A stretch of 36,655 nucleotides of DNA from Candidatus Woesearchaeota archaeon (GTDB lineage Archaea; Nanobdellota; Nanobdellia; Woesearchaeales; DATGWN01). Under the pieces are notes generated by a model. It ran no database searches, was not told where the DNA came from, and saw only the letters and a program-made list of their open reading frames with translations. This document shows, piece by piece, positions 13,035 to 28,957 of the stretch (its first letter is position 1; each line of letters opens with the position of its first letter). The stretch covers positions 1-36,655 of the forward strand of contig JBLINR010000002.1 of the NCBI GenBank assembly GCA_047639395.1, written 5' to 3'. The translations under genes were made by a program, and so were the position numbers.

Positions 13035-13036
13035 GT

Positions 13037-13044
13037 TTTATATA
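13037..13044 (+). promoter_or_regulatory. TATA box (TTTATATA) for ORF 13067
   Basis: It ends 22 nt upstream of ATG 13067. Confidence 0.4.
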
Positions 13045-13066
13045 CCTCTTTTTTCTTTTTCTTTTT

Positions 13067-13366: not shown

Positions 13367-13401
13367 GTTATTTTTTAATTAAGTTCTTTTTCTTTTCTTT
13401 T

Positions 13402-13620
13402 ATGAAATTATTTCGACATGCAGATGTAAGTGATCTTGTATTCTCAGAAGTTGCTGATGAATTGCGTGAAGATCATATAGAGTATAGTGTCCATGATGTC
13501 AAAACAGTTCCTGAAATATTACTTGCATTAAGGCGAGACCCAGATCATGTATATGGTTTGGTTCATTCTGACGATACAGACAGGATTCTATCTATGTCTG
13601 GTTTTTATGCCGTAGGATAA
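13402..13620 (+). CDS. Hypothetical acidic protein, 72 aa
   Basis: ORF track. A TATA-like TTTTTAAT ends 22 nt upstream. No recognisable domain. Confidence 0.4.
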   Translation: MKLFRHADVSDLVFSEVADELREDHIEYSVHDVKTVPEILLALRRDPDHVYGLVHSDDTDRILSMSGFYAVG

Positions 13621-13710
13621 TTTATAACACAATATGCGAATGCTTTTGGAATCATGTATTTTCCTAAGACTGCTGCAACGCTTGAAGTAGAAAGATTATT
13701 TGATTTAATA

Positions 13711-13740
13711 AGAAAAGAAAAATAAAAAAATAAGAAAAAT
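13711..13740 (-). terminator. Oligo-T terminator region for the eS19-eL39-eL31 operon
   Basis: The minus strand just past the eL31 stop reads ATTTTTCTTATTTTTTTATTTTCTTTTCT, with T7 at 13724-13730. Archaeal termination typically uses oligo-T tracts. Confidence 0.5.
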
Positions 13741-13741
13741 C

Positions 13742-14164
13742 TTATTTAGTTTTTGGAGTTTCGTCTTTAGGAGCTTCTTCTGATTTTTTTACTGGTTCAG
13801 GTTTTGCTTCTACTTTAGCTTCTTTTTCTACCGGTTTTTCAGCTTTTGGTTCTACTTTTGTAGCAGGACTTTTTGCTTCTGGTTTTTTAGGAGCTTTTTC
13901 TTTTGAAACTTCAGAACTCATTCGCACTAAAACAACATTTTCTTTGTTTTTTGTAGCGACAACTTCAACTTTCATGATAGGATTACGCATCCCATTTTGC
14001 CAGATATGTTCGTTAAGCACTTCGCTTATTTTGATATCTTCTGACTTCATGTGTCTAGTTATGAATTTCTTTAAGACTGCAATAGCCTTTTTTGCACGTC
14101 GCAGTGGTGTTGCGCGCATTGTTCCCCGTCGAAGCGGTACCACATATGTTCTTTCAAGTGTCAT
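13742..14164 (-). CDS. rpl31e: Ribosomal protein eL31 with a Lys/Pro/Glu/Ala-rich C-terminal extension of about 55 aa
   Basis: TYVVPLRRGTMRATPLRRAKKAIAVLKKFITRHMK...IWQNGMRNP is the eL31 core. The tail reads SKEKAPKKPEAKSPATKVEPKAEKPVEKEAKVEAKPEPVKKSEEAPKDETPKTK. Confidence 0.9.
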   Translation of the reverse strand: MTLERTYVVPLRRGTMRATPLRRAKKAIAVLKKFITRHMKSEDIKISEVLNEHIWQNGMRNPIMKVEVVATKNKENVVLVRMSSEVSKEKAPKKPEAKSPATKVEPKAEKPVEKEAKVEAKPEPVKKSEEAPKDETPKTK

Positions 14165-14168
14165 GTTT

Positions 14169-14342
14169 CTACGCCTTCGTTTTTGTACGTCTCCAGTTTC
14201 GCTTCACAGTAGTGTGTCTGCCTGGGTGTACTTTTCTGCCTTTGCCGTAAATCTTTAGAACTGTCCAAAATGGAGCCCATCGAGTCATTCGTCCTAATTT
14301 GATTAGTCGAATTTTTCTAGATAAATGTTTTGATCGCGCCAT
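14169..14342 (-). CDS. rpl39e: Ribosomal protein eL39, 57 aa (below ORF-track cutoff)
   Basis: Hand translation: MARSKHLSRKIRLIKLGRMTRWAPFWTVLKIYGKGRKVHPGRHTTVKRNWRRTKTKA. ATG 14342-14340 directly follows the eS19 stop. TAG at 14171-14169 is 4 nt before the eL31 ATG. Confidence 0.9.
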   Translation of the reverse strand: MARSKHLSRKIRLIKLGRMTRWAPFWTVLKIYGKGRKVHPGRHTTVKRNWRRTKTKA

Positions 14343-14762
14343 TTACTCTACCTTCACCGCTGTGTCAAGTAGTTTTTGACCTGGTCCTGTGATTACTCGT
14401 CCCTTTCTGTTATCTACAATAACTTGTTTTACAAGTCCTGCAGCTTCTAGTTGCTGTAATGCTTTACGTGCAACGCTTCCAGATCCGGGCATGAATCGTG
14501 ATTTCTTATGTCCCCGTCGTTGACGTCCGCCATATTTTACTCGTAGTTTGTTTGTTCCAATTGGACCAAGAACTGCTACAGTTCGTAAAATTGCTGCACA
14601 TCGAACAAACCACCATTGTGGATCTTCGGGTTGTCGCTCCTTATGTACTCCTGTTTTTGCAAACGGAGCCCATTCAGGTGCCTTTATTTGATCGTTTTCT
14701 TTGAGCTTTCCAGCGGCTGCGCTGATAAGCTGTGTTGGGTTTATATCTCTAAAAGTTACCAT
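14343..14762 (-). CDS. rps19e: Ribosomal protein eS19
   Basis: APEWAPFAKTGVHKERQPEDPQWWFVRCAAILR...YGGRQRRGHKKSRFMPGSGSVARKALQQLEAAGLV matches archaeal S19e. GGAGGG SD at 14772-14777. Confidence 0.9.
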   Translation of the reverse strand: MVTFRDINPTQLISAAAGKLKENDQIKAPEWAPFAKTGVHKERQPEDPQWWFVRCAAILRTVAVLGPIGTNKLRVKYGGRQRRGHKKSRFMPGSGSVARKALQQLEAAGLVKQVIVDNRKGRVITGPGQKLLDTAVKVE

Positions 14763-14849
14763 TTCGTTTTTCCCTCCAAACTAGATTTGGTGTGCTTACG
14801 CACTAGGATTGTTATCTTGGCGATAACAGTAGGAAGAAACTGGGGGCTA

Positions 14850-14857
14850 TTTATAAA
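14850..14857 (-). promoter_or_regulatory. TATA box (aaacaTTTATAAAtag) for the r-protein operon, with a leader of about 65 nt
   Basis: The 16-nt motif aaacatttataaatag is identical to the one at 17992-18007. The predicted TSS is near 14827, that is 65 nt upstream of ATG 14762. Confidence 0.5.
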
Positions 14858-14989
14858 TGTTTAGGGCTAAATAAGGACTATTTCGTGAGTTTAGATGTCG
14901 AAGTTGTACGTTTACTTGTACAACTTTTACGTAAAAATTGTACAGTTATGTCATATATTTACTAATAATTTTTATTTTTTTAAAATTGT

Positions 14990-15005
14990 AAAAAAGATAA
15001 AAAAA
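14990..15005 (-). terminator. Possible oligo-T terminator downstream of the RIO kinase gene
   Basis: The minus strand reads TTTTTTTATCTTTTTT (T7 plus T6), about 100 nt after the stop at 15108. Confidence 0.3.
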
Positions 15006-15107
15006 TCATCTAGCGTCCTCGGAAGAACACTAGGGCTCATTTTATTATGAATAAGCTAGTATTATATTTAAATCTTATTGTTTTTTTAGACTCAGAACCA
15101 CGGATGT

Positions 15108-15812
15108 TTATTTAACAACCCATTCCTTGAGAATATCTTCTTTTGTGATTGTCACACCCATACGTTTTGCCATAGCTGCAACATTTGTTGCATCACGTGC
15201 TAGATAATCAGGTGTGTTGGAATCTTCAATATTTGTAGATTGACTCATATCAATAAAAACTGGTTTTTCTTTGTCAACAAGAATATTAAACATAGATAAG
15301 TCTGCATGTACTAACTTTGCTTTTTGAATAAGCTGTTTTTGTAATTCAACAACTTCCTTGATAAATTGTTCAGGATCTTTAAGTGCAGCGTTTTTTGCTT
15401 GTAATGCTGGCGGAGTTCCTATACATTGCATTACAATAACATTGTCTTTTACTGCTAACACAGTTGGGACACGGATTCCTGCTTCTCTTGCTAATAATAA
15501 ATTTCTAAATTCTCGTTGGACCCAAGCAAAAATTATTTCTCGGCGTCTTCCTTTTAGATGTAAATATCGCGGATCACATTTAATGTAATCAAACATTTTG
15601 TTAAAATTACAATTTTCTAAACGATATATTTTAACAATAACAGGTGTGCCATCAGCTTGAAGTGCAACAAATATATTTGCTTCTTTTCCTAATGATAAAG
15701 AACTTTTTAATTCAGAATAATGGCCTTGTCCTTCTAGTTTATGGAGAACCCGTAGAGTAAACTCATCAAAGACATTATTATAGATTTTCCATTTTTCTTT
15801 TGCTGTAGGCAT
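15108..15812 (-). CDS. RIO-type serine/threonine protein kinase (Rio1-like, no N-terminal wHTH)
   Basis: GKEANIFVA, VIVKIYR, WVQREFRNLLLAREAGIRVP, LVHADLSMFNILV and FIDMSQS are RIO kinase motifs. A TATA-like TTATAAAT (15834-15841) lies 21 nt upstream of the ATG. Confidence 0.85.
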   Translation of the reverse strand: MPTAKEKWKIYNNVFDEFTLRVLHKLEGQGHYSELKSSLSLGKEANIFVALQADGTPVIVKIYRLENCNFNKMFDYIKCDPRYLHLKGRRREIIFAWVQREFRNLLLAREAGIRVPTVLAVKDNVIVMQCIGTPPALQAKNAALKDPEQFIKEVVELQKQLIQKAKLVHADLSMFNILVDKEKPVFIDMSQSTNIEDSNTPDYLARDATNVAAMAKRMGVTITKEDILKEWVVK

Positions 15813-15841
15813 AGAATTGAGGATAGATAGGCGATTTATAA

Positions 15842-16786
15842 CTACTTCGGATCTGGGTTAAAGCTCAGACTTTGAATAATAAGCTCATTTCGAGCAAACA
15901 TCTCGTTTTTTGTAACTCGGCCAGTAAGTTGTACAAGTGATCCTAATATTTTAGCATGATGTGTTTCAAACAGTTTTTCATGTTCTTTTAATTCTAATAC
16001 ACCGTCATGAGTTAAATCAAATATTTGTGCAACTTGATCTCTGAATGCGACGCAACGGATTGTTTCTGATCCGTCGTCAACTACAACATTAAGTACGTAT
16101 GCATATGTGTGTTTTTCTGGATCAAATTGATTTGTTTCATCAAGTCGAACTTTTTTATTTGTTAGTTTATCAACGGGATAAAATGAGGGTTTGTATGCTT
16201 GTACAATCACACCCATTATTTCTACAACACCTTGATCTGCGATATCGATGATTTTCACAGAAGCTGCTTGTGCAGAGCGATTCACCACTTCAATTTCAAC
16301 TCCAGGTGGGTTTACGAGCATTTTAGAAACAGAACCGAATGTTAATTCAACACGGTCTTGATTTTTTCGAATTGCAACGTTGTTTAATTGTAATATATCT
16401 TGTGGTTTTACGTCCACAAGTAAGTCTGCTTGGTCGTTCCAAAATGTTAATCGCATAACACCTGTTTCGTCACCAAGTAACACTGATTGTACACGACCTT
16501 GAGAGCCATTTCGCTCAAATGTTCGTTGATCATATGTTTGTAGAACTTTAGCGGTAACATGAGTGGATTTTTGATTGTCAGAAATTTCGTTTATTTTTAA
16601 TGGGATATGAATGTCAAGTAAATTAATTCCTAAATCATTTGCAACAACGTGTGCTGCACCTTCTCGCGAAATTAGACCTGAGAATTCTTTTAATTTTGCT
16701 TCAATTAGTCCAAGAACATCCTCTTTTGGCTGTTTTGTTCTCTCGCTGATAATTGTGACTGCTTTTTCAAATGGAATTTGTAACAT
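15842..16786 (-). CDS. Replication protein A-like ssDNA-binding protein (multiple OB folds)
   Basis: 314 aa. VTAKVLQTYDQRTFERNGSQGRVQSVLLGDETGVMRLTFWNDQA is a typical archaeal RPA OB-fold pattern. A second OB-like repeat follows. Confidence 0.7.
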   Translation of the reverse strand: MLQIPFEKAVTIISERTKQPKEDVLGLIEAKLKEFSGLISREGAAHVVANDLGINLLDIHIPLKINEISDNQKSTHVTAKVLQTYDQRTFERNGSQGRVQSVLLGDETGVMRLTFWNDQADLLVDVKPQDILQLNNVAIRKNQDRVELTFGSVSKMLVNPPGVEIEVVNRSAQAASVKIIDIADQGVVEIMGVIVQAYKPSFYPVDKLTNKKVRLDETNQFDPEKHTYAYVLNVVVDDGSETIRCVAFRDQVAQIFDLTHDGVLELKEHEKLFETHHAKILGSLVQLTGRVTKNEMFARNELIIQSLSFNPDPK

Positions 16787-16819
16787 ATGTGACCCCTATC
16801 AAATGAAATCAACTGGAAA

Positions 16820-16827
16820 TTTATATA
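16820..16827 (+). promoter_or_regulatory. TATA box (TTTATATA) for ORF 16850; possibly bidirectional with the RPA gene
   Basis: It ends 22 nt upstream of ATG 16850. On the other strand TATATAAA lies 33 nt from ATG 16786. Confidence 0.45.
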
Positions 16828-16849
16828 CTTATAGGTACCAAAGATTACA

Positions 16850-17272
16850 ATGCGTGGAAAAACTCATCTCATTTATGGTATTCTTGTGGCAGTGTTCTCT
16901 CCATCTTGGCTTATTGGAGCTGCAACTATAGTTGCAAGTGTGCTGCCAGACATTGACAGTCCGAAAAGTCTGCTTGGGAAACCATTCTTTTTTCTTAATC
17001 ATGCTGCAACGCACAGGGGCTTTATGCACAGTATATGGGCATTTATTCTGTTGGCTGCTTTGTTATCCTTGTTTTGGCCATCTGCGCTTGTATACGTTCT
17101 AGCAGGCTATGCAAGTCATCTGGTATTGGATGCATTAAATAAAAAAGGAATTCACTTATTTTATCCTTTTTTCCATATACGCGGATTCTGTAAAATGGGT
17201 GGTATTATTGAATGGTGCCTATTTTCAGTAGGAATTTTACTTATTGTAGGAAGAATTATTGCAGTAATTTAG
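16850..17272 (+). CDS. Membrane-bound metal-dependent hydrolase, DUF457/YdjM family
   Basis: 140 aa. THLIYG..., LPDIDSPKS, HRGFMHS and SHLVLDALNKKGIHLFYP match the YdjM-type pattern. Confidence 0.7.
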   Translation: MRGKTHLIYGILVAVFSPSWLIGAATIVASVLPDIDSPKSLLGKPFFFLNHAATHRGFMHSIWAFILLAALLSLFWPSALVYVLAGYASHLVLDALNKKGIHLFYPFFHIRGFCKMGGIIEWCLFSVGILLIVGRIIAVI

Positions 17273-17292
17273 GACTTCTCAAATCAAATACC

Positions 17293-17300
17293 TTTAAAAA
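17293..17300 (+). promoter_or_regulatory. TATA box (TTTAAAAA) for the KH-domain gene
   Basis: It ends 22 nt upstream of ATG 17323. Confidence 0.45.
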
Positions 17301-17322
17301 GGCCCCTGCAGTCTCTTTTTAT

Positions 17323-17910
17323 ATGGACGACATGGGTACGATACATTATGATGTAACAATTCCAAAAGCACGTATTGCAGTATTGATAGGTGCAGAAGGA
17401 TCAGTTAAACGTCAGATTGAAGAATTAACTCAAACCACAATCGTTATTGACTCTCAAGAAGGGGAAGTAGAGATTGAAGGTACTGATGTTATTGTAAGCT
17501 TTGCAGTCCGTGATATCATAAAAGCAATTGGCCGTGGATTTAATCCTGACATTGCATTATATTTACTAAAACCTGATTATGCTTTCGAATTAATTGATCT
17601 AACAGAATATCTTACTTCAAAAAACGCACTAGAGCGTGTAAAGGGCAGAATCATTGGTACTCGTGGAAAAACACGAAACACTATTGAGAAGTCTTTAGAA
17701 GTTCATATCTCAGTTTATGGAAAAACAATCGGCGTGATTGGTGAAATTGAACGAGTAAGCGCTGCTCGACAAGCAATTGAAATGATTCTTGATGGCTCAC
17801 CACATGCGAATGTATACAAATGGGTTGAAAAGAAACGAAGTTCATTAATTAAAGCTGATCTAAGTGGAAATAAAATCGAAATTAAAGACAAATTTAAGGA
17901 TTATGTCTAA
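17323..17910 (+). CDS. KH-domain RNA-binding protein (archaeal Dim2/Pno1-like)
   Basis: There are two KH modules: IPKARIAVLIGAEGSVKRQIE and GRIIGTRGKTRNTIE. The track start at 17212 overlaps the upstream gene; ATG 17323 (MDDMGTIHYDV) fits the TATA spacing. Confidence 0.8.
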   Translation: MDDMGTIHYDVTIPKARIAVLIGAEGSVKRQIEELTQTTIVIDSQEGEVEIEGTDVIVSFAVRDIIKAIGRGFNPDIALYLLKPDYAFELIDLTEYLTSKNALERVKGRIIGTRGKTRNTIEKSLEVHISVYGKTIGVIGEIERVSAARQAIEMILDGSPHANVYKWVEKKRSSLIKADLSGNKIEIKDKFKDYV

Positions 17911-17996
17911 ATTCTGTTGATGTACTTTAAAATCATAGTTTCTCGTCGAGAAACCCTGTATTTTAGCTCAGGGAATAAACACCCCTTAAGAAAACA

Positions 17997-18004
17997 TTTA
18001 TAAA
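17997..18004 (+). promoter_or_regulatory. Strong consensus TATA box (aaacaTTTATAAAtag) with no ORF at the leaderless position
   Basis: It carries the same 16-mer as the r-protein operon promoter. The predicted TSS is about 18027. No ATG/GTG/TTG-initiated ORF starts there. Confidence 0.45.
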
Positions 18005-18026
18005 TAGATACTGATTTCGTATTCCT

Positions 18027-18164
18027 AGACACATAGAGCTCCAAGTGGAGTGTTCACATTTATTATATTTATACTCGCTACCGGCCCGTCACGAGAGTAT
18101 CTCATCGAGCATCTGGATTCGTCCAAGCAATGAGTTTGAGAGTTAGTGATTCGGGCCTTTTTTT
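18027..18164 (+). ncRNA. Candidate small structured RNA of about 135 nt, or a long structured dnaG leader (class unknown)
   Basis: It runs from the predicted TSS to a T7 tract (18158-18164). GGCCCG (18083-18088) pairs with CGGGCC (18152-18157) immediately before the T-run. There is an internal TGGA-TTCG-TCCA hairpin (18114-18125). I could not recognise any tRNA, 5S or C/D-box pattern. Confidence 0.25.
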
Positions 18165-18220
18165 ATACCCAGTATCAATGGTAGGTAAAGTAAGAGTTCT
18201 ATGTGCGAGGTTATCAAAAA

Positions 18221-19504
18221 ATGGCAAAAATAAGTCCTGTATCAGGAAAATATATCATTCGCGCAGATATCAAAATTGACGGAGTCGTAGACCGACCCGA
18301 TATTATAGGAGCAATCTTCGGACAAACTGAAGGATTGCTTGGTGCACAGTTAGAACTTCGAGAACTACAGCGAAGCGGTAGAATCGGAAGAATTGAAGTA
18401 AATACACAATCTAAAGCCGGTAAGACTATTGGTGATATTGTTATTCCATCATCATTAGATAAAGCTGAAACAGTAATTGTTGCAGCAGCATTAGAAATCA
18501 TCGAACGAATTGGTCCTTGTAATTCTACTATTCTTGTAGACAAGATTGAAGATATTCGAGTTTCAAAAAGAAATCACGTTATTAAGCGTGCAAAAGAACT
18601 TTTACAAGCGATGCAGACTACTGTATTACCTGATTCTCAAGATTTAGCGGATCAAGTTGCAGAATCTGTACGAGTGATGGAAATCACAAATTACGGTAAA
18701 GATAAATTAGCAGCAGGACCGGGAATTGATAGTTCTGATGACATTATTGTTGTTGAAGGACGCGCAGATGTAGTAACTCTATTAAAACACGGATTCAAAA
18801 ACGTTATCGCAATGAACGGAAGTAACATTACGCAAACACTAATCGACTTGTGTAAAACAAAAGAAGTTACAGTATTCGTTGATGGTGATAGAGGTGGAAT
18901 TCTTAACGTAAAAGAACTTATTGAAGTAACAGAAATTGACTTTGTTGCAAGAGCTCCAGATGGAAAAGAAGTTGAAGAACTTGCTCTTAAAGAAATTCAT
19001 AAAGCACTACGATCAAAAGTTGCACCTGATCAAATGAAGTCAGAATTAGCTTCAAAAGATTCATTACGAACTCGAGCTTCATCAGCTAATGCACGAGCAT
19101 CTACAAAAACAACAACTAGTCGTTCAGACAAACCACCAGATCGAAACAGTAGAAACACACGACCTGAAAGAAGTGAATCTAGCGATGCACCGCGTACGCG
19201 AAGACCAGTAAAACCTACTGATGATCAAATGAAAACATTTGAAACAGTATTAGAGGAATTAGTTGGATCACATGCAGCAGCGTTATTAGACGAATCTATG
19301 AACACACTTGGAAAAGTTCCAGTTGCTGAATTAGAATCAACTATTGAAGGTTTTGATGATGGTATTTTTGCAGTAGTTGTAGACGGTTCAATTGTGAAAA
19401 GTCAAGCAAAAGCTGCCGAAAAAGCACATGTGAAGTTTATTGTATGTCGTGAGTCATCAGTTAAACCTGCTGAAACGCGAACAAACATCATTACAATCGC
19501 TTAA
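18221..19504 (+). CDS. dnaG: Archaeal DnaG (Toprim-domain primase-like / exosome-associated) with an internal Ser/Arg/Thr-rich insertion
   Basis: KYIIRADIKIDGVVDRPDIIGAIFGQTEGLLG...LRELQRSGRIGRIEV is the archaeal DnaG N-terminus. Toprim motifs are IIVVEGRADV...VDGDRGG. GAGG lies 10 nt upstream of ATG 18221; the track start at 18203 is a GTG. Confidence 0.9.
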   Translation: MAKISPVSGKYIIRADIKIDGVVDRPDIIGAIFGQTEGLLGAQLELRELQRSGRIGRIEVNTQSKAGKTIGDIVIPSSLDKAETVIVAAALEIIERIGPCNSTILVDKIEDIRVSKRNHVIKRAKELLQAMQTTVLPDSQDLADQVAESVRVMEITNYGKDKLAAGPGIDSSDDIIVVEGRADVVTLLKHGFKNVIAMNGSNITQTLIDLCKTKEVTVFVDGDRGGILNVKELIEVTEIDFVARAPDGKEVEELALKEIHKALRSKVAPDQMKSELASKDSLRTRASSANARASTKTTTSRSDKPPDRNSRNTRPERSESSDAPRTRRPVKPTDDQMKTFETVLEELVGSHAAALLDESMNTLGKVPVAELESTIEGFDDGIFAVVVDGSIVKSQAKAAEKAHVKFIVCRESSVKPAETRTNIITIA

Positions 19505-19506
19505 AT

Positions 19507-20292
19507 CTACACTTGTGCAGATTTGCACAAGTATTCTTTTTTTATTTTTATATTATTATAACGTAATATCTGATATACTTTTTTATCTAGTGCTTTTCTA
19601 TCTATGTCTGTTAATACACATTTCTTATTATACAATTCAATGGGATGTCTTTTCAGATGAAATGTATCTTTGTTAGATCCATATCGAATAGCAAGTACGC
19701 TATGAAGTACAGATCCCTTTTCATTAAACACAAGAGATGGCAATACGTGAATTTTTTCTGATCTTTTTGATACAGGTTTAATTCTAGTATGTTTTTGCTG
19801 TAACGCTCTTCTAAATTTTCGCATTGGTTTGATAGGAACACCCATAAAAAACACTTGGCGCTCTAAGTTTTGATAATCTGTATTTGAATGAAACACATCA
19901 AACGCTGCATGTGAATGTCCCATTGCATGTACGCGTTTACCTTTGTCTTGCAGGTATTGTTGCGCTCTATGAAATGCACCTTCGTCAACATGAAACGATG
20001 AGCCTGTTATTCTTTGTTCTATGGGTAATACAAGATCATCAAGTGTTATTTCTGTTTCCTGATATGGTAACTCTTGGACTACTTGTTTTGTCTTGACATT
20101 TGCTCCATACAAAAATGCAACTTCATATGATTTTCCTGCTAAATCGCTGATTCGTTTACTAATATAATTGGATTGTAAAATAACTCTATAGTCAACACGA
20201 ACTCTGACTCTTTCTTGTTGTTGTACAAAATCAGTTTCTTCATGTTTTGATGTTAATAATGATTCAATAGTAAATGGTGTTTGTAAATTCAT
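19507..20292 (-). CDS. JAMM/MPN+ (JAB) metalloisopeptidase
   Basis: The motif is complete in track numbering: E68 (SYEVAFLYG) ... H137-S-H139-x7-S147-x2-D150 (HSHAAFDVFHSNTD, codons 19876-19917). ATG 20292 is preceded by GGAGG at 7 nt; the track start at 20325 is a TTG. Confidence 0.8.
   Translation of the reverse strand: MNLQTPFTIESLLTSKHEETDFVQQQERVRVRVDYRVILQSNYISKRISDLAGKSYEVAFLYGANVKTKQVVQELPYQETEITLDDLVLPIEQRITGSSFHVDEGAFHRAQQYLQDKGKRVHAMGHSHAAFDVFHSNTDYQNLERQVFFMGVPIKPMRKFRRALQQKHTRIKPVSKRSEKIHVLPSLVFNEKGSVLHSVLAIRYGSNKDTFHLKRHPIELYNKKCVLTDIDRKALDKKVYQILRYNNIKIKKEYLCKSAQV
19511..19549 (+). terminator. Hairpin plus T-tract terminator for dnaG, embedded in the 3' coding end of the JAB gene on the opposite strand
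   Basis: acttgtgca-gatt-tgcacaagt (9-bp perfect stem, 19511-19532) is followed by attc TTTTTTT a TTTTT (19537-19549). Confidence 0.45.
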
Positions 20293-20294
20293 AG

Positions 20295-21533
20295 TTAGGC
20301 CTCCAGCTTTTGTTTTTTTGTGCAATGATAAAAAAGGGGTTTTTCAAGAATACGACTTTGTACTGATAATTGTTGTTGTGCTACGTATCCCATCATTGCT
20401 CCCACAATCATGTTCGGAACAATGATTGACGGGTTTGCGACTCTTGCACAACTTGCATCTCTTGTTACTGTCTGCGGTTGTAAATCGCGTTGTAATGCAA
20501 TTGTTTTTGTAAATGGTGGTGTATATTGCGTGACCACACCTTTGTGCGTTGATACTGCACCTTCAATTACTTCTATTTTGTATTTTCTTGCAAAATCGGA
20601 AATGAGTATTCGACTATTAATAGAGTCAGTGGCACAAAAAATTGTGTCGTAGGGAACTCGTGTGTGTCTGCGTTCAAGTTGTTGAATTGATTGTTCTGTA
20701 AGATATTCGTTAATTGCACACCATGTTGTTTGTGGTGCTATTCTTCCCATGATACGACAAAGACTCTGTGCTTTTTGTTGACCAACTTCTGTTGCATACA
20801 AAAATTGACGATTAAGGTTTGTTGCTTCTACTGTATCTCCATCATACACATCAATTTGTTTGTAGCGACTAAATGCTACTTGTAATGCTAAATACGTTCC
20901 AATTCCTCCGGCACCAATGATTGCAACCTGTTTGGTTTTTTTTTTCGGGAGATGAATATGTCTTTTTGTGAATGCTCTCGGGCAAAGAGTTGTTTCTTTT
21001 TGAATGATTTCTTCGTTAGCTGTTAATGGTGCAAATCGTTTTCTTATCTCGTCACTTAACATTGCACCTAATAAGGGGGAGAGTAAACTTCCTAACTCAG
21101 TAGTTGGTTGCCGACTAACAACTGCTTTGTTTGTTTTTGTTGTGGTTGCATAATAAGATGCATGCACATTTTTTGCAAGTGTTGCAAATCTTTTATTTTT
21201 TTCTTCATGTTGATCGATGCACATGTGCGGGTTATCTATGTATTGTGTAAGTAAAGGTCCACGAATAAATTTCCAATTAAGCGGGTACCTTTTTTCAAAA
21301 ATATTCTTTGCTTGACGAACACGATACTGTGTTTTTTTATCACACAGATTTTGCAATAGTACTAGTGGTGTTTGTACATTGTCAATTACTGTGACGTCTT
21401 TTACTCCTAACCCTGCAAGACCCATTAGTAGGTATTCTGATGTGAGATTTAATCCATGAATAACAATTCTTGCTTCTTCAAGTTTCTTTTGACGTTCTAG
21501 TCCTAATGCACTTATATTTGCTTCGTATACCAT
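20295..21533 (-). CDS. E1-like ThiF/MoeB-family adenylyltransferase with an N-terminal degenerate (inactive-like) repeat
   Basis: The C-terminal half has VAIIGAGGIGTY (GAGGIG codons 20898-20915), DGDTVEATNLNRQFLY and Cys362 in RDASCARVANPSIIVPNMIVGAMMG (TGT 20448-20450). In the N-terminal half, ARIVIHGLNLTSEYLLMGLAGLGVKDVTVIDN and LGSLLSPLLGAMLSDEIRK echo the same fold without a Gly-rich loop. Confidence 0.85.
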   Translation of the reverse strand: MVYEANISALGLERQKKLEEARIVIHGLNLTSEYLLMGLAGLGVKDVTVIDNVQTPLVLLQNLCDKKTQYRVRQAKNIFEKRYPLNWKFIRGPLLTQYIDNPHMCIDQHEEKNKRFATLAKNVHASYYATTTKTNKAVVSRQPTTELGSLLSPLLGAMLSDEIRKRFAPLTANEEIIQKETTLCPRAFTKRHIHLPKKKTKQVAIIGAGGIGTYLALQVAFSRYKQIDVYDGDTVEATNLNRQFLYATEVGQQKAQSLCRIMGRIAPQTTWCAINEYLTEQSIQQLERRHTRVPYDTIFCATDSINSRILISDFARKYKIEVIEGAVSTHKGVVTQYTPPFTKTIALQRDLQPQTVTRDASCARVANPSIIVPNMIVGAMMGYVAQQQLSVQSRILEKPLFYHCTKKQKLEA

Positions 21534-22540
21534 TGTGTTTTATGTTGTAATGAACGTGGGTAATGAACAGGGGCGCAGTCTGGTGTATATCCAAACATGA
21601 GTACATTTTTTGCATAGTGCATTGCAGTTGCTAACTTAGTTGCAGTTTCTTCATTTTTTGGCATCCAAGAATTTTGATGTAAGTTAATTTTATTGAACCG
21701 AGAACTACCATTATAACAAATGGATCCATTTGAAAAAACAAAAAAATGTTCATATCCTTTTCGTGCTCTTGGAAATTGAGTAATAAGGCATTCATCTTGC
21801 GTATGTGTTATACGAAGAGTGAGTTGCGTTGCATCAAAATAATATTTTTGTGATTCTGCCTCCACTTCGTGTGCGGGTTGTTTTGTAGACAATACAATTG
21901 TTTGTTCGTCTATTTTTTTGAGTCTACAATTTTGATTATGCTGCGTGTGATCTCTATCGAATTCTTTTTGTGGTAATATCTTTTTTTGATAATGTTGATT
22001 CCAAAATGTTGTTTGTGGAATTCTGATGGGCTGTTTTGAAAAAAAGTGCCTACCAACTGAAAAATCAACATTTGGTCTTGGTTCTACTGGCACGAGAAGT
22101 TGTGTGTTTTTCTGTGTGAAATATGTGTTTGGTAAAATTATTTTTTGTTCTTTTGTTTGTTTTCCTTCTGGATTGGTTTGTGTTTCTTTTTTTGGCTGGT
22201 ACCACTGTAAATAAGCATCCGTGAGTTTTTTCCAAAAAGTATCAACCTGTTGTTCTTCTAAAAACCACTGTATATCTTCGCAGATCTCTGCTGGTTTTCC
22301 AAGTATAGTTGCAGTTGCATTTTTTTTGTTTATTGCAGGTACGTATACAGTATTATTAAACAGTACTGCTTGTTTTGTTTCTGCTAATAATTCTTGTAAT
22401 GGTGGTTTGGTTTGCGGCACAGGTGTTTTTTGACTAAAAATATGTGTTGGTTGTATACGCGGTTGCAGTTGTCGTACTACTCGGAAAGTTGTACGTGGCT
22501 GTATGTAAAATATTTGTCCCTGTACGATAGTTTGATTCAT
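21512..22540 (-). CDS. E2-like (UBC-fold) protein with an N-terminal region of about 220 aa of unknown function
   Basis: The C-terminal region reads YEH265FFVFSNGSIC275YNG...NSW292MP...LATAMHYAKNVL. This compares with the UBE2D active site [21 protein letters not shown] (from memory). The Cys codon is TGT at 21716-21718. The N-terminal part is Gln/Pro/Lys/Thr-rich with no recognisable motif. Confidence 0.6.
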   Translation of the reverse strand: MNQTIVQGQIFYIQPRTTFRVVRQLQPRIQPTHIFSQKTPVPQTKPPLQELLAETKQAVLFNNTVYVPAINKKNATATILGKPAEICEDIQWFLEEQQVDTFWKKLTDAYLQWYQPKKETQTNPEGKQTKEQKIILPNTYFTQKNTQLLVPVEPRPNVDFSVGRHFFSKQPIRIPQTTFWNQHYQKKILPQKEFDRDHTQHNQNCRLKKIDEQTIVLSTKQPAHEVEAESQKYYFDATQLTLRITHTQDECLITQFPRARKGYEHFFVFSNGSICYNGSSRFNKINLHQNSWMPKNEETATKLATAMHYAKNVLMFGYTPDCAPVHYPRSLQHKTQWYTKQI

Positions 22541-22552
22541 GTATGTTCCTAG

Positions 22553-22975
22553 TTACTTTCTCCCACCATCAAGTGTTGCAAGTAACTGTACTGCTATTGC
22601 TTTGTAGTCTGAATCTTGTGTATCTGTGTGAACAACACTTGCGTAATGTTGAGAAACTCTGTCTGTGAGTGATATTCTATATCCTGAATCAAATTGTCCA
22701 TCTCGTTTTGGAATCAGATGTAATGTTTGAGGTGTTGTTAATTCAGTTGCAATATAATCTGCAAGTCCACATTCATCAGGCGAGTAGTCGCTATTGTGTT
22801 CGTCCGCACCTGGGTCGAGTAAATATTGTACTACATCATCAAATGTTCCTTGGAGTAATTCTGGAGAAACAAGTTTACAAAGACCTGTTTGATCTTGTGT
22901 TGTACCATCTTCAAGTATTTTTGTTAGTGAGTCGTTAGGTGTATTTGTCACTAAAGTTATTTTTGTTGGTTTCAT
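22553..22975 (-). CDS. Ubiquitin-like (beta-grasp) modifier precursor ending in GG-RK
   Basis: 140 aa. The C-terminus is ...YKAIAVQLLATLDGGRK, with Gly137-Gly138 codons at 22562-22567 followed by only Arg-Lys and the stop. It is the first gene of the operon, 12 nt upstream of the E2-like gene. Confidence 0.55.
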   Translation of the reverse strand: MKPTKITLVTNTPNDSLTKILEDGTTQDQTGLCKLVSPELLQGTFDDVVQYLLDPGADEHNSDYSPDECGLADYIATELTTPQTLHLIPKRDGQFDSGYRISLTDRVSQHYASVVHTDTQDSDYKAIAVQLLATLDGGRK

Positions 22976-23093
22976 ATGTTTTTAGGAAGAACTGCTTTTA
23001 ATGGAGTTGTTGTATACATTTCCGGTTATTTTGCGAGTAAAGTATACGTTTTTTCAGATTAAGATGCACTGCTCGTCGTACCTTGTCGAAACA

Positions 23094-23101
23094 TTTATAA
23101 T
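23094..23101 (+). promoter_or_regulatory. TATA box (gaaacaTTTATAAT) for the large secreted-protein operon
   Basis: It ends 23 nt upstream of ATG 23125. Confidence 0.5.
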
Positions 23102-23124
23102 ATTAAAACACAAAATGAGTATCA

Positions 23125-25794
23125 ATGAGTAAAGGGTTTTTGAAAAGAGGGCAGATATCTGCGTATATATTTGTAGGTGTCTTGATAGCAGCGATTGCTA
23201 CAATTGGTATTATAGCAAGTAATCCTCTAACTGTGGATGTAACTAATACTCTTGAAGATTTTGCTGTTACTGAGCAAGTTGATCAGGCATTTACACAACT
23301 TCGCGTTTATGTTGAACAATGTATGGAGCTAACTGCTCGAGAAGCAATTGTATTATTAGGTACTCAAGGCGGATATATTGAACAAGATTTCCGTGTAATT
23401 GAACAACTACCTACTGAATCTGAAGCAATTCCATTTGTTCCTGGTAGCGATTATGTTGTTCCTTACTGGTTATACATGTTTGACTCAAACTCTTGTTTAG
23501 AAAATTGTCAATTTAATTCACACCGTCCTCCACTTCGTATTGAGGAAGCTCCTGATTCTACTGTTGCAATTGAACGACAGCTTAACGAGTACATGCATGA
23601 AAAAGTTACTGATTGTTTAGGAAACTTTGAAGCAATGGAAGCTGTTGGGTATTCGGTTGTATCTCGAGGATTACCTATCTTTTCGACAAATTTTCGTCAA
23701 GATGATGTACAATTTCTTTTAAATTATCCATTAACAGTTACATCTGGTCAAACAAATGAAGATTTATCACAATTCTTAGTTGAAATTGATGTTCCGCTTA
23801 AACGAATGTATGACTATGCGTCAATGCTTGCATTTTTTGCATCTGATCGTAACTTTTTAGAAAATCACGCTACATCACTTATCTCAACATATTCTAGTTT
23901 AAATCCAGGACAACTTCCGCCAGTTGCAGGTTCTTCTTTTGAATTTGCAAATACGCGATATTGGGTAACGGGACAAGTACGAAAACAAATTACTGAAATG
24001 TTAAGTGTATATGTTCCCCAATTACAAGTATTATATTCTGCTAATTATCAACCATTTGATATTGATCTATATCCTGATTCTGCTTCAAAAGATCCACAAA
24101 TCATGGCAGGTATTGAACGATTATACAATAATATGGTATTACCTATTGATCCTGCTAATTTTATCAATGAGAATGAAACACGCTTTGATGAGTTTGCAGT
24201 TGACTTTGCGTATTATGAAGATTGGGCACCGTATGTGAGTTTGAATGGTGGACAAGAATTAATCCAACCGCACAGTCTCTCAATTGATTTAATTCCATTT
24301 TTCGGAATAAACCAATACGAAACATACTATGATGTGAGTTATCCTGTTCGAGTAAGTGTGTATGATAAAGAGGCATTAAACGGCGAAGGATTTTCATTTA
24401 ACTTTGCACTAGAAGCAAATATCCGAGATAATCGTCCATTTGAAACTGGAGATGTATTAGTTGGTTCTTTAACTCCGTTAGAGGGTCATCTAGATTACTT
24501 TTGTGAATATGATCAACGAAATAGTGGCTTAATTGAGTTTACTGCAATAAATGCGATGAGTGGGCAACCACTTGTAAATCAACCTGTAACTTTTAGTTGT
24601 GGAAATACAAAAGTTGTGCAATCAGCTGTTTTTAGTTCGAGTCCTGCTCCTGAATCTGTTGAAAGCTATTTCAAAACCTCACATCCTGATTCTGAAATTC
24701 GTGTGACATTTGCACATGAGACATTATCCTTTCAATCATTCAAAGTTCTTGTTGATGACTTATACGTAACACAGTCTGGTGTTATTGCGTTTAATGAAAA
24801 CTCACAAACAAGTTCATTTACTCAAGGATCAAAAGTACAAGTTGATCCGACTGACTTTACTGCTGTGGGAAACACAGGTGCGCAATTACTTAATGTGTTT
24901 GATGATGACGTGGACTTTGAAGTTCTTAACACTGAAACAGGTGTTGTAGACAATTACCAAGTTCGAAATGATCAAAATTCAATTATTTTTACAAAAGAAA
25001 AACATACTCCTGCAACAAGATCTTGTAGTATTGATGTAACTGATGAGACTGGTTACTTTTCAGGAAAATTCCCTATTTGTGCTGGCGGATATTTATCTTT
25101 ACCTAGCACTGAATACTTACAATCAACATTCTTATTATCAACAAATCTTAACAAACCTGTTGATCTAGGTGTATTAGAATTACAACCAAAAAGAAACCTT
25201 ACTGTGAAAGTTAAGAAAAATTTGGTTAAGAAGTCAGGTGGTCTGTATTTATTTGAAAAAGAGCCTGTTAACTTAGAACGTTTTGAAACTGCGTACGTTA
25301 CACTTGAACGTGTGAAACACAATCCGCTTGAAGCTGATTATAGTGCATTCTTTGTATTTAATGGAAGTGGCGGACCTGATCTTTTAATTGATGGTGTTCG
25401 TCAGAATACTGATGCTGATGTAACAATTCAAGTTGCACCTGGAAATTATACGGTGACTATGATTCTTATACTGGATAATGAAGTGACAATACCTGCTCAA
25501 CCAATTTATGATGATGATGATGATCTTGTTACTACTATTGCTCCTATTACTTTACCGCAATCGCCATCAGGGAAATATGATTTGGATGAAACAACAGGGT
25601 ACTTATCATTAAGTGCTGCAGATCTTGACAGTGGGAAAGCTCTTGAGTTTTATGCAATCGGACAAGACCTTCTAAAAACATGTACAAAGGGATGTACTGC
25701 GAAAGACTTAAATATTGAAATATTCGTGGATCACTATGTGATAGAACACTTTAATACATTATATCCGAAATTTGTAGGTGTAAGCAATGAATAA
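23125..25794 (+). CDS. Large (889 aa) extracellular protein with class III (type IV pilin-like) signal peptide
   Basis: The N-terminus MSKGFLKRG-QISAYIFVGVLIAAIATIGIIAS has a charged n-region, KRG/Q, then a hydrophobic helix, like archaeal prepilin-peptidase substrates. The rest has no recognisable domain. Confidence 0.7.
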   Translation: MSKGFLKRGQISAYIFVGVLIAAIATIGIIASNPLTVDVTNTLEDFAVTEQVDQAFTQLRVYVEQCMELTAREAIVLLGTQGGYIEQDFRVIEQLPTESEAIPFVPGSDYVVPYWLYMFDSNSCLENCQFNSHRPPLRIEEAPDSTVAIERQLNEYMHEKVTDCLGNFEAMEAVGYSVVSRGLPIFSTNFRQDDVQFLLNYPLTVTSGQTNEDLSQFLVEIDVPLKRMYDYASMLAFFASDRNFLENHATSLISTYSSLNPGQLPPVAGSSFEFANTRYWVTGQVRKQITEMLSVYVPQLQVLYSANYQPFDIDLYPDSASKDPQIMAGIERLYNNMVLPIDPANFINENETRFDEFAVDFAYYEDWAPYVSLNGGQELIQPHSLSIDLIPFFGINQYETYYDVSYPVRVSVYDKEALNGEGFSFNFALEANIRDNRPFETGDVLVGSLTPLEGHLDYFCEYDQRNSGLIEFTAINAMSGQPLVNQPVTFSCGNTKVVQSAVFSSSPAPESVESYFKTSHPDSEIRVTFAHETLSFQSFKVLVDDLYVTQSGVIAFNENSQTSSFTQGSKVQVDPTDFTAVGNTGAQLLNVFDDDVDFEVLNTETGVVDNYQVRNDQNSIIFTKEKHTPATRSCSIDVTDETGYFSGKFPICAGGYLSLPSTEYLQSTFLLSTNLNKPVDLGVLELQPKRNLTVKVKKNLVKKSGGLYLFEKEPVNLERFETAYVTLERVKHNPLEADYSAFFVFNGSGGPDLLIDGVRQNTDADVTIQVAPGNYTVTMILILDNEVTIPAQPIYDDDDDLVTTIAPITLPQSPSGKYDLDETTGYLSLSAADLDSGKALEFYAIGQDLLKTCTKGCTAKDLNIEIFVDHYVIEHFNTLYPKFVGVSNE

Positions 25795-28700
25795 GAAGTT
25801 TATTGCAATATTCATTATTACTCTATTTATGACTCTTCCATTCTCATTTGCATTTAGCCTTAATGCTGTTTTCGTTGAGGGGGATATGAGTCCTCATGTT
25901 AATGAAATTAGAGGAGATGAAGACTTTACATACCGTGCGATACTTATTGCTGAACCAAACGATAAGGACACATCTGGAAATATTAAACCTAACTTTGTGT
26001 CTGCAATACCGAGTAGTCTCTATATCGGTAACAAAAATTCTGGGCGGGCTGAATTCTTCACATCTTGTGAAATCATAAATGATACTGGTAGTGTTGAATG
26101 TTTATTAGAAGAATCTGCTTTGACTTCAATTCAATCTCCATTAATACAATACTATACACGTTTTGAAAGACGACGTCGTATTGGATCTAACTTGCATACT
26201 GAAACCCAAGTTTTTAATGGTACATATATTGTTGATGATCGTGTGCCGGAATTAGAGATTATTGATACACAACAAGTATTAGATACATTGTCTATCACAG
26301 TAAAAATCACGGACAAACTTCGTCCAACATTCGAGGATCAACACGAAGGTTGTACTCCTATTTATACAGTAAAAGCATATATTCCTAGAACTGGACGAGA
26401 AACAATTAATACTGACGTTGAATTACAATCAAAAGGATGTTCCTTTGAACTTGTACTAGATGTAGATGTTTCTGAAATGTCAACTGGTGTTCAGAATGTG
26501 TGTGTTGAAGCAACTGATGGTGTTGACTTAACAGGTAAAATGTGTAAAAATGTACAAATTGATAAAGATGCACCGTTAATTCGAGAAATTGCAATTGCAA
26601 CTGAAGATAATAATAAAATTGAATTTATTCAAGAGTATGATGAAGGATTTATTCGTTTTAGAAAAACAAGTGATACTAATCTAAATACATTAACTATTTC
26701 CTTAAACGGTGTTCCGTTAAACATTCTTGAATGTCGTGAACGAAACATTTGTGTAACTACTGAATTCACACTTACACAAGGCACACATACAATTGAACTC
26801 TATGCTGAAGATACACGTGGTAATGTTGCTGATACACAAGTTATACAAACAATTGTTACTGACACTGCTCAACCTGCACTTGTTTCATTAGAATCAGATG
26901 TTGTTATTGATGGTGTTTCATTTATTACTCGAGGACAAAGTAAAATTGTTGCAACATTTGATGAAACACAGAGTGGGTTTCATAAACGAATTGGTTCTAA
27001 TTTAGTTGAACAAGTCCTTTTGCAACAGCGACATAGTGGTATTATACGACATGCAAACACGTGTACACAATCAAACTCACAATGGATTTGTACTTGGACA
27101 CAATTTCCAGTTCTTAAGACTGATCCTGATGGTCACTTTGATCTTATTCTTGTAGCTCGTGATGATACGGGTAACATCATGACAGGTGAAGCTGAGCATT
27201 TATTTATGTTGGATACGACGTTTCCTCAAGTTGATGCTACAGGTGTAACTACTGTTGGTGTTACTGGCACAGGTGTTGTTCAAAATGAAATTGTTACTGG
27301 TGATTCAGCTATTCGTGTTACTGTTCCAGTTACTGATGCAAGTAATATGAGGATTGTTGGTGATTTTACATCAGTTGGTGGTGGTTCTAATGTAACTGGT
27401 TCTTGTACTGATACGTCATGTACTGTTACTTCGAATACAATATTTTTGAGTGGCTTACAATCAGTGACTGTTCGAATCTTTGACTCATTTAATCGAGACA
27501 CACAAGTTACAACTGATGAAATCGAAGTTCTTAAATCAGGAGATCCTGAATTTTTGGATCAAGAATTCTTTTCACATTCATTAACAGTATCACCTTCACA
27601 ATTTGAAAAGACAACAAGTCGTTTCAAAAATCAAAAAGCGTTTGCCTCTATTAAAATTACATCTGATCAAGGTGCAAAAGCAACTACTTCTCGTCTATTA
27701 AGTTGTCGAGGACGAGATGGTGATCATGCAAATGATGATTCTTTCTTTAGCTCAGTAAATCAAATAACAACTGCTGACCCGAGTGAAACACTATTACAAT
27801 TAGAATTAAAAAGTGCTGATATTAATCAAGAAGAAATTCGTATGATTTGTGTTATTGGTGTGAGTGGTTCTGTTGATGGAACATTTATTCCTGAAGAACG
27901 TGAAGAAGTACAATTGGACTTTGGCACATATGCTTTTTCTATGGGTGAAATTGGTGAGAATCATGAAGCTGAAGTAGAAGCTGCAATTTCTGCTGCAAAT
28001 GATGGTATTATCAACACAATTGCAAAACTTGAAAAGTTTGTGAAAATCGCAGAGACACTTTGTCGATTACTGAATTTGTTTATGACTGTTCGAGATTTAC
28101 TTAAGACGCTAGGAGTTGGATTTAAATTCCTTGGTCAAGCATTAAGTACAAATCCATTTACTGCGGGCGCAGGTCAAGCATTATTACAAGCTGGTGCACG
28201 TATGTGTGGTATTGAGCAAACAGGAAATGAAGTTGTACGAAAAACATTTGTTGAAAGAATTCAAGGTGTATGTCAATTCATTACATGTGAGCGAAGTTTA
28301 ACTGGTGCAATCATGGGTTCATTTGGAGATGAAGGATTTATGGCTGGCAGTGAAAGTGGCGTTCTTGATAGAATTGGAACACGTTCCAATTTCCAAAATG
28401 ATGATGGGAATGCGAGAACTATTGAATATAATGACGGTGGACAAGATTCTGGTGCAAGTACTACTAAATCATTACTAACTGACGATTCATTTATCCCGCG
28501 GGATAATTTATTCTGGAATATTATTGATTTATGTATTCCTGGTATTATTAAAAATTTGAATAGATTACGACAACTTAAATGTCAATACGCAGTGTGTGTT
28601 CGAGATGATGTTCCACAAGGTGTACCTAAGAGTGCATGTGATGCAGCATTAGCGTATGGTGAGTGTAGATTCATTTACCAAACTATGTTTTCAGCATTCC

Positions 28701-28957
28701 CGCCATTTGCGTTTTTCGACTTTATGATGAATAAGTTGATTGCGTTAATCGCAAATCCATTTGCATTAGCTGGCTTTATTATTCAAAAAGTTATTTGTCA
28801 AGCTACTTGTGAATCGCCTGAGGGTTTTACATATAATGCGTGTGTTTCATTAACGTTGGCAAGTGAACTTGCAGCATCCATTCAACATATTATGAAATTT
28901 ATTAAAAGTTTAAGTGATAAGGAGTTCCAAAATGTCAACTACTGTGATCAGTTATAG
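25787..28957 (+). CDS. Large (1056 aa) secreted protein with Ig-like repeat signatures and a Cys-rich hydrophobic C-terminal region
   Basis: Sec-type signal MNKKFIAIFIITLFMTLPFSFAFS. Recurrent domain-boundary motifs are DDRVPELEI, DKDAPLIREI, DTAQPALVSL and DTTFPQVDA. The start overlaps the upstream stop by 8 nt. Confidence 0.7.
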   Translation: MNKKFIAIFIITLFMTLPFSFAFSLNAVFVEGDMSPHVNEIRGDEDFTYRAILIAEPNDKDTSGNIKPNFVSAIPSSLYIGNKNSGRAEFFTSCEIINDTGSVECLLEESALTSIQSPLIQYYTRFERRRRIGSNLHTETQVFNGTYIVDDRVPELEIIDTQQVLDTLSITVKITDKLRPTFEDQHEGCTPIYTVKAYIPRTGRETINTDVELQSKGCSFELVLDVDVSEMSTGVQNVCVEATDGVDLTGKMCKNVQIDKDAPLIREIAIATEDNNKIEFIQEYDEGFIRFRKTSDTNLNTLTISLNGVPLNILECRERNICVTTEFTLTQGTHTIELYAEDTRGNVADTQVIQTIVTDTAQPALVSLESDVVIDGVSFITRGQSKIVATFDETQSGFHKRIGSNLVEQVLLQQRHSGIIRHANTCTQSNSQWICTWTQFPVLKTDPDGHFDLILVARDDTGNIMTGEAEHLFMLDTTFPQVDATGVTTVGVTGTGVVQNEIVTGDSAIRVTVPVTDASNMRIVGDFTSVGGGSNVTGSCTDTSCTVTSNTIFLSGLQSVTVRIFDSFNRDTQVTTDEIEVLKSGDPEFLDQEFFSHSLTVSPSQFEKTTSRFKNQKAFASIKITSDQGAKATTSRLLSCRGRDGDHANDDSFFSSVNQITTADPSETLLQLELKSADINQEEIRMICVIGVSGSVDGTFIPEEREEVQLDFGTYAFSMGEIGENHEAEVEAAISAANDGIINTIAKLEKFVKIAETLCRLLNLFMTVRDLLKTLGVGFKFLGQALSTNPFTAGAGQALLQAGARMCGIEQTGNEVVRKTFVERIQGVCQFITCERSLTGAIMGSFGDEGFMAGSESGVLDRIGTRSNFQNDDGNARTIEYNDGGQDSGASTTKSLLTDDSFIPRDNLFWNIIDLCIPGIIKNLNRLRQLKCQYAVCVRDDVPQGVPKSACDAALAYGECRFIYQTMFSAFPPFAFFDFMMNKLIALIANPFALAGFIIQKVICQATCESPEGFTYNACVSLTLASELAASIQHIMKFIKSLSDKEFQNVNYCDQL

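Follow-up and report, generated by a model that had tools for sequence, protein, structure and literature searches.

Does a compact four-gene cassette in an archaeal genome encode a complete pathway for conjugating a ubiquitin-like protein (Ubl), and does the 342-amino-acid (aa) protein at its center act as the ubiquitin-conjugating enzyme (E2) of that pathway? This question is raised by a stretch of 36,655 nucleotides (nt) from Candidatus Woesearchaeota archaeon (assembly GCA_047639395.1, contig JBLINR010000002.1, positions 1 to 36,655), hereafter referred to as the window. The gene concerned occupies 21512..22540 on the minus strand, is second in the cassette, and was proposed in a preliminary description to encode an E2-like protein; its open reading frame proved to be real, running for 342 aa from an ATG start. 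We consider it likely that the protein serves as E2-type carrier in a self-contained Ubl conjugation cassette, operating without a ubiquitin ligase (E3), in a Woesearchaeota/Nanoarchaeota-type archaeon of the DPANN group. This reading is supported mainly through residue conservation and gene context, with context providing the strongest support.

The cassette consists of four tightly packed minus-strand genes, overlapping or abutting within about 3.5 kb, which encode in order a small protein with a Gly-Gly (GG) end, the E2-like protein, a ubiquitin-activating (E1-like) enzyme, and a JAB/JAMM metallopeptidase. The first gene (22553..22975, minus strand), located 12 nt upstream of the E2-like gene, encodes a candidate Ubl precursor of 140 aa ending in ...ATLDGG followed by RK. 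Mutually alignable homologs of 126–166 aa occupy the same position at related loci (labeled L001, L002, and so on); their GG or G end directly precedes the stop codon (...KGG in L010 and ...KVG in L005) or is followed by 2–24 unconserved residues. A GG end followed by a variable tail is the pattern expected for a modifier precursor trimmed by a peptidase, and we infer that the small protein is a beta-grasp Ubl modifier. The E1-like enzyme (412 aa; 20295..21533, minus strand), whose gene shares 22 nt with the E2-like gene, matches Pfam ThiF over two stretches (5.4e-38), and its PDB matches include Uba4, UBA3, and Uba1. It comprises an inactive adenylation-like half (aa ~1–195) and an active ThiF half with GAGGIG at 207 and NLNRQ at 239. 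The N-terminal half, which lacks GxGxxG and NLNRQ, is homologous to the C-terminal half (hhalign probability 95.8%, E 7e-9); as judged from its sequence, the enzyme is a single-chain pseudo-dimer of an inactive and an active adenylation domain (IAD and AAD). Its Cys362 (nt 20448–20450) lies in a short crossover loop and is conserved in all eight full-length homologs. As only ~35 residues separate the last AAD strand from the NPS motif, the enzyme has no CYS-domain insertion, and it also lacks a C-terminal ubiquitin-fold domain. A CxxC...CxxC zinc motif of the MoeB/ThiF type is kept in the E1s of L002, L003, L008, and L010 and has been lost in those of the window, L001, and L006.

The fourth gene (19507..20325, minus strand) encodes a JAB/JAMM metallopeptidase of 272 aa, counted from a TTG codon, with a weak match to Pfam Prok-JAB (9.3e-4). 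Its JAMM residues are intact (Glu68, His137-x-His139, Ser147, and Asp150), the E...HxHx7Sx2D motif is complete in eight homologs, and the protein shares 31% identity with its counterpart beside the cassette genes at L001. From the TTG at 20325, the reading frame overlaps the E1 gene by 31 nt, and an ATG at 20292 lies three bases past the E1 stop codon. The ATG, giving a protein of 261 aa, is the likelier start because homologs begin with MNL.

This arrangement recurs beyond the window. Loci were collected from the contigs that carry E1 and E2-like relatives, and in 16 of 19 distinct loci, with GC contents from 29% to 62%, an E1 gene, a JAB gene, or both adjoin the E2-like gene. Three gene orders were observed, namely Ubl-E2-E1-JAB, Ubl-E2-JAB-E1, and Ubl-JAB-E2-E1. 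The association of the E2-like domain with E1 and Ubl is drawn from this gene neighborhood, and thioester transfer among them is predicted.

Conservation provides the second line of support. An exhaustive phmmer search of 1.84 billion representatives identified 21 relatives (E 6.5e-14 to 1e-3), all of which match target residues ~205–335 exclusively and always through their own C-terminus. Approximately 15 further relatives were added through a DNA-pattern scan and neighbor look-ups. The few named relatives come from metagenome-assembled genomes designated "Candidatus Woesearchaeota archaeon" or "Nanoarchaeota archaeon", and all are annotated as hypothetical proteins. The preliminary description had placed a UBC core in the last ~115 residues; a conserved C-terminal domain is indeed present (aa 205–342; 21515..21928, minus strand), but it extends over ~205–335, that is, 130–138 aa. 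In the 22-sequence alignment of this domain, His265 (nt 21746–21748) and Cys275 (nt 21716–21718) are the sole invariant columns, and F235, P257, Y263, F267, and G317-Y318 are near-invariant. The conservation of Cys275, which had been put forward as a check on the assignment, was thereby confirmed, and this residue is also kept in the members added later. A degenerate DNA pattern, [YF]xHPFVxxxGxIC[YF], retrieved 13 metagenome loci, 10 of which encode family members (hidden Markov model E 1e-24 to 1e-36); the His/Cys motif is retained in all 10, as well as in relatives at related loci. An initial metagenome pattern, GYEH[FL]FV..G.IC[YF], retrieved no loci, though it matches the window, L001, L006, and L007, and a scan of viral contigs for relatives of the target found none.

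The motifs on which the E2-like proposal was based, QLTLRITH, H265FFVFSNGSIC275, W292MP, and the helix LATAMHYAKNVL, are all found in the protein. The spacing from His265 to Cys275 is 10, and that from the active-site His to Cys in UBE2D2 is likewise 10. The distance from Cys to Trp was described as about 9 residues longer than in UBE2D, which agrees with 17 (C275 to W292) versus 8 in UBE2D2. W292 itself is variable, and a loose aromatic-Pro pair before the long helix recurs in ~10 of the 22 sequences of the domain alignment. The Asn of the HPN motif was reported to be replaced (HFF). It is absent, but this does not represent a loss specific to the gene, as H-x-F is family-wide: Phe occupies the Asn position throughout, in the form H-[FLTM]-F in the sub-clade of the target and H-P-F in more distant members, with the Pro kept in about half of the family. 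Because the distant members read HPF, the Asn-to-Phe change is ancestral to the family. Altered catalysis arising from the missing Asn would, in fair inference, be a property of the whole family.

Structural modeling places the domain closest to E2s. AlphaFold2, applied to the 22-sequence domain alignment, produced a model with a mean predicted local distance difference test (pLDDT) score of 94.7 and a predicted template modeling score (pTM) of 0.86; single-sequence modeling of the full-length target was unusable (pLDDT 31). In the domain model, a six-stranded meander leads to the His/Cys loop; a short helix past the Cys, a 20-residue helix (aa 297–316, the helix sequence given above), and a short terminal helix complete it. 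Among the top 50 Foldseek matches in the PDB, 37 were E2s (E 0.24–1, TM-score 0.3–0.44), including Ube2G1, Cdc34, UbcH5, Rad6, Ubc13, and UbcH7, and a Foldseek search of the BFVD viral fold library found nothing significant and nothing better than these PDB E2s. A search of PDB sequences with the domain profile gave 19 weak matches (E 0.28–2.2), of which 18 were E2s, and the alignments pair Cys with Cys, placing HpFVfsdgsIC on HPNVYADGSIC. Comparison by hhalign with five canonical E2 sequences yielded probabilities of 50–54% and E-values of 1.3e-4 to 1.6e-4 over 28–41 columns. The aligned segment includes strand beta3, where QLTLRITH pairs with FFLTIHF, as well as the P-x-V segment and the active-site loop.

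Several observations weigh against the E2 assignment and the conjugation pathway built on it. Every similarity score to E2s falls below significance when taken singly: no Foldseek match in the PDB reached an E-value under 0.001, and the target matches neither Pfam UQ_con nor Prok-E2, with UQ_con being matched by 1 of the 22 family members at an E-value of 0.15. The model departs from the textbook UBC fold: its active-site loop is preceded by six strands, and the domain contains no N-terminal helix. In addition, Asn is missing from the HPN motif. For the small protein, no resemblance to Ub, NEDD8, ThiS, or MoaD, or to entries of Pfam or the PDB, was detected. Moreover, at three loci an E2-like gene is found, but none for an E1, a JAB protein, or a GG-protein is in view. 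The check for a UBC fold came out in its favor only in a weak sense, with a confident model whose nearest PDB folds are E2s but with scores below threshold. The call of an E2-like protein stands on the convergence of His/Cys spacing, model, weak profiles, and cassette context, but not on any single significant similarity score. We read the C-terminal domain as a genuine but very divergent UBC-like domain. A comparison of the entire target with Pfam, NCBIfam, PADLOC, and PDB sequences gave no matches for any part, a word-indexed homology search of 5.8 billion clusters retrieved the target alone, and the same type of search with the domain alignment retrieved no matches.

The partnerless E2-like genes (L019, 4220..5464; L020, 4390..5289; L024, 2493..3737) form one sub-clade and adjoin genes for a conserved ~350-aa protein, a winged-helix regulator, TatD, and a P-type ATPase. 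Either their partners are encoded elsewhere in the genome or these E2-like proteins act differently.

The N-terminal region of the target (aa 1–204; 21929..22540, minus strand) was analyzed through a full-length alignment of 26 homologs. It had been described as rich in Gln, Pro, and Lys, which holds for residues 1–204 (Q 13.7%, T 10.3%, P 8.8%, K 8.8%). It was further described as about 220 aa devoid of recognizable motifs and of a Cys/His cluster; the searches likewise found no Cys/His zinc-binding domain, and residues 1–204 contain one Cys and five His, but four weakly conserved blocks do exist. Block N1 (aa ~44–69; PPLQELLAETKQAVLFNNTVYVP in the target) follows the family pattern [HN]PFxxL....hhhhxGxhYxP, block N2 (aa ~100–112) is helix-like with the pattern xxFhxxhhxxY, in block N3 (aa ~121–150) a Pro precedes a second hairpin-like stretch, and block N4 (aa ~178–186) reads h...Y. 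The idea of a fusion specific to this lineage must be abandoned, as the region is family-wide and fast-evolving and is present in all long members. Its length ranges from ~35 aa in the 177-aa P0027 form to ~410 aa in L015, and its mean column identity is 18%, compared with 30% for the catalytic domain. A possible duplication relating N1-N2 to N3-N4 is weak (hhalign probability 36%, E 4e-4). The region was also considered as a second, degenerate UBC domain, which was rejected (hhalign probability <1%): hhalign shows no relationship with either the C-terminal domain or canonical E2s. Its profile found no consistent match in the PDB or Pfam.

The naturally occurring 177-aa form, which retains solely an N2-like helix ahead of the core, is informative regarding the role of this region. 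It is located between the GG-protein and E1 genes on three independent contigs. Since this form keeps its position in the cassette, most of the N-terminal region appears dispensable for the cassette's existence, and it is disfavored that most of its length has an obligatory part in E1 docking, one of the two functions initially suggested, the other being that of a built-in E3-like module. The region would be compatible with an accessory, target-selection, or regulatory role. A second candidate for a minimal E2, at L023, was rejected, because the reading frames upstream of it point to a long form with a frameshift.

Taken as a conjugation pathway, the cassette would operate as follows. The JAMM peptidase would trim Arg-Lys from the 140-aa precursor and expose Gly-Gly; the pseudo-dimeric E1 would then adenylate the modifier C-terminus in its active half and pass it as a thioester onto the crossover-loop Cys362. 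Cys275 of the E2-like protein would next receive the modifier as a thioester; in this protein His265 may organize the loop as in canonical E2s, with Phe replacing the HPN Asn. Discharge would occur straight onto target lysines with no E3, the N-terminal region serving as an accessory module, most likely one that selects targets or regulates and not one required for E1 docking, and the JAMM peptidase may also undo the modification. This scheme builds on the gene content and order, the conserved catalytic residues of the three enzymes, the confident domain model, and the duplication within E1 documented here. As to its purpose, the mostly housekeeping neighbors lean towards cellular protein regulation.

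Three other explanations were weighed against this reading. The same chemistry might serve a Bil-type antiviral defense that tags virus structural proteins rather than acting in housekeeping regulation, which we regard as possible though on the unlikely side. The four-component make-up matches that of Bil, the E1 weakly matches the PADLOC Cap2 "E1-E2" models via its ThiF region, the N-terminal region is fast-evolving, the family is rare and patchy (22 clusters in 1.8 billion representatives), and an Mrr-like nuclease is encoded near the cassette in L003. However, the neighbors are mostly housekeeping genes (DnaG, RPA, Rio1, AspRS, KsgA, ABCE1, and XPD), three related genomes share the placement beside DnaG, PADLOC has no match for the E2-like protein, the JAB protein, or the small protein, and the viral-contig scan described above revealed no relatives. 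The setting is unlike a defense island, though a defense role is possible.

The remaining two explanations concern the chemistry itself. The 342-aa protein could be a UBC-fold derivative with a new job, such as a Cys/His peptidase, an E3-like or adaptor protein, or an inactive UEV-like protein, with E1 conjugating directly in a SAMPylation-like manner. The sub-threshold similarity to E2s, the missing catalytic Asn, and the loci where the E2-like gene has no adjacent E1 would fit such a derivative, as would archaeal SAMP systems, which run on E1 alone. Nevertheless, we judge this quite improbable: invariance of exactly the E2-defining His and Cys disfavors an inactive UEV-like protein, peptidase activity is already provided by the JAMM gene, and no partner of this E1 subfamily is more constant than the E2-like gene. 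Finally, the cassette could be a sulfur-carrier pathway of the ThiS/MoaD/SAMP-like plus ThiF/MoeB type, active in cofactor synthesis or tRNA thiolation, with the 342-aa protein relaying a persulfide on Cys275. In NCBIfam, the E1 comes closest to ThiF/MoeB, with all scores far under the cut-offs, several E1 homologs keep the MoeB-type CxxC...CxxC, and the small protein ends in GG, as do ThiS and MoaD. Against these similarities, the dedicated JAMM protein and the tails past GG indicate conjugation and deconjugation, the E1 joins IAD and AAD in a single chain like BilD and eukaryotic E1s whereas MoeB is homodimeric, a rhodanese domain is lacking, the neighborhood contains no genes for thiamine, Moco, or tRNA thiolation, and the His-x9-Cys loop replicates the E2 active site. 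Consequently, a sulfur-carrier role appears very unlikely, and conjugation with the 342-aa protein as the E2-type carrier is the reading we retain.

Comparison with known systems helps to place the cassette. The Bil operon is defined by a Ubl, an E2, a JAB/JAMM peptidase, and an E1 (PMC11601603), and inactive-plus-active adenylation in a single chain is a hallmark of eukaryotic E1s and BilD (Chambers et al., PMC10557695). The cassette resembles BilABCD Types I and II in having the same four components, no E3, a JAB-trimmed Ubl precursor, and a single-chain IAD+AAD E1 (PMC10557695, PMC11601603), with both the Ubl and its trimming being predictions for the cassette. In contrast to the bacterial Bil, the cassette is archaeal (DPANN); its E2-like protein has no Prok-E2 match, the N-terminal half of its E1 has no match to PF14459 in Pfam, and PADLOC matches none of its other three proteins. 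Furthermore, its E1 has the Cys in a short crossover loop and not the ~80-aa helical CYS-domain insertion, its E2 carries a 35–410-aa N-terminal region and the H-x-F motif, its modifier of ~135 aa has no detectable Ubl similarity, and its genomic context is not defense-like. The cassette is most like Bil in how it would work yet fails Bil membership on sequence and E1 architecture.

Canonical UBC E2s of the UQ_con family, including those of Caldiarchaeum and Asgard archaea, have in common with this family the active-site loop P-x-V..(Y)-H-P-x-V-x3-G-x-I-C, in which His and Cys are equally far apart, as well as a beta-meander leading into a long helix, and partnership with an E1 and an Rpn11-like JAMM. 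Unlike them, this family has a near-invariant Phe for Asn, 17 rather than 8 residues from Cys to the aromatic-Pro pair, extra strands, and no inner N-terminal helix, and it falls below the Pfam threshold; the Caldiarchaeum/Asgard systems also differ in that the cassette has no RING E3. Because it has neither a UQ_con-grade E2 nor a RING protein, the cassette is not of the Caldiarchaeum/Asgard type. Cap2/Cap3 of type II CBASS likewise combines E1 and E2 activities with a JAB peptidase, a crossover-loop E1 Cys, and no E3. However, Cap2 fuses E2 to E1, its E1 homodimerizes, its "Ubl" is the C-terminus of the CD-NTase, and the cassette has no cyclase or effector gene; the absence of both fusion and cyclase sets it apart. 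Bub (6E/DUF6527) is comparable in being a prokaryotic E1/E2/Ubl cassette that is divergent and whose E2 chemistry is non-canonical. It forms Ser oxyesters without catalytic cysteines and has a DUF6527 serine protease (PMC11601596), and the cassette is distinguished from it because both the E1 and the E2-like protein keep a conserved Cys; a Pfam search found no DUF6527 in the cassette. Unlike ThiS/MoaD-ThiF/MoeB systems, the cassette has a two-domain E1 and E2-like and JAMM genes, and its NCBIfam scores are far below the cut-offs.

The window is part of an archaeal chromosome, as it encodes DnaG, the arCOG04150 KH protein, RPA, Rio1, L31e, S19e, ScpB, and an intein-containing GyrA. DnaG adjoins the cassette in the window and in the closest loci, L001 and L006; more distant loci have unrelated, mostly housekeeping neighbors. 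Beside the cassette, at 23125..31697 on the plus strand, lie genes for three very large proteins of 889, 1056, and 927 aa. The N-terminus of the first, KRGQISAYIFVGVLI, is pilin-like (class III signal peptide-like), and a faint Big_3_3 domain is present in one of the three. Genes for homologous large surface proteins flank the cassette at L006 (9596..13227) and L027 (1..5391), and at L006 the cassette is inverted relative to the DnaG and surface-protein flanks. These recurring neighbors may reflect shared ancestry or a functional link. Variations were observed at other loci. In L016 (2..4093), two tandem E2-like paralogs, whose N-terminal regions are 41% identical, flank the GG-protein gene, and a gene for a transglutaminase-like protein (Cys protease fold) occupies the expected JAB position. 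In L003 (6339..9194), two proteins of 428 and 386 aa are encoded downstream of E1, each with Cys-x2-Cys clusters that could be zinc-binding, E3-like modules, and a second GG-type small protein of 126 aa, ending in ...AIFG at the stop codon, follows. Elsewhere in the window, GyrA (1238 aa; 6859..10575, plus strand) is interrupted by an intein with a LAGLIDADG homing endonuclease (Pfam Intein_splicing and LAGLIDADG_3), and no tRNA genes or Rfam families at the gathering threshold were found in the 36.6 kb (1..36655).

A more far-reaching proposal, which we advance tentatively and would not ourselves bet on, is that the cassette represents a hitherto undescribed, DPANN-specific branch of Ubl conjugation in which a eukaryote-style, single-chain pseudo-dimeric E1 works with an H-x-F E2 lineage whose modular and fast-evolving N-terminal domain replaces the E3 in choosing targets. 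Because the hosts of the cassette are reduced-genome episymbionts, these targets could include cell-surface or host-interaction proteins. Very large surface proteins with pilin signals adjoin the cassette in three related genomes.

A literature search on E1-E2 systems in DPANN archaea and Woesearchaeota found no paper describing such a cassette. It is probably an undescribed relative of Bil and of the eukaryotic ubiquitin pathways, so far found in Woesearchaeota/Nanoarchaeota-type archaea only. To our knowledge, complete E1/E2/Ubl/deubiquitinase cassettes outside eukaryotes are few, comprising those of Caldiarchaeum/Asgard, Bil, Bub, and Cap2, and each of them has changed views on the origin and chemistry of ubiquitination. 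The present cassette would add an archaeal family in a genome-reduced DPANN group, an E1 that already holds the inactive/active adenylation pseudo-dimer, and a lineage of E2s that does without the HPN Asn and comes with a variable N-terminal module of its own. With its four genes in about 3.5 kb, it should be well suited to reconstitution, which would make the action of an Asn-less E2 and the choice of targets without an E3 testable.

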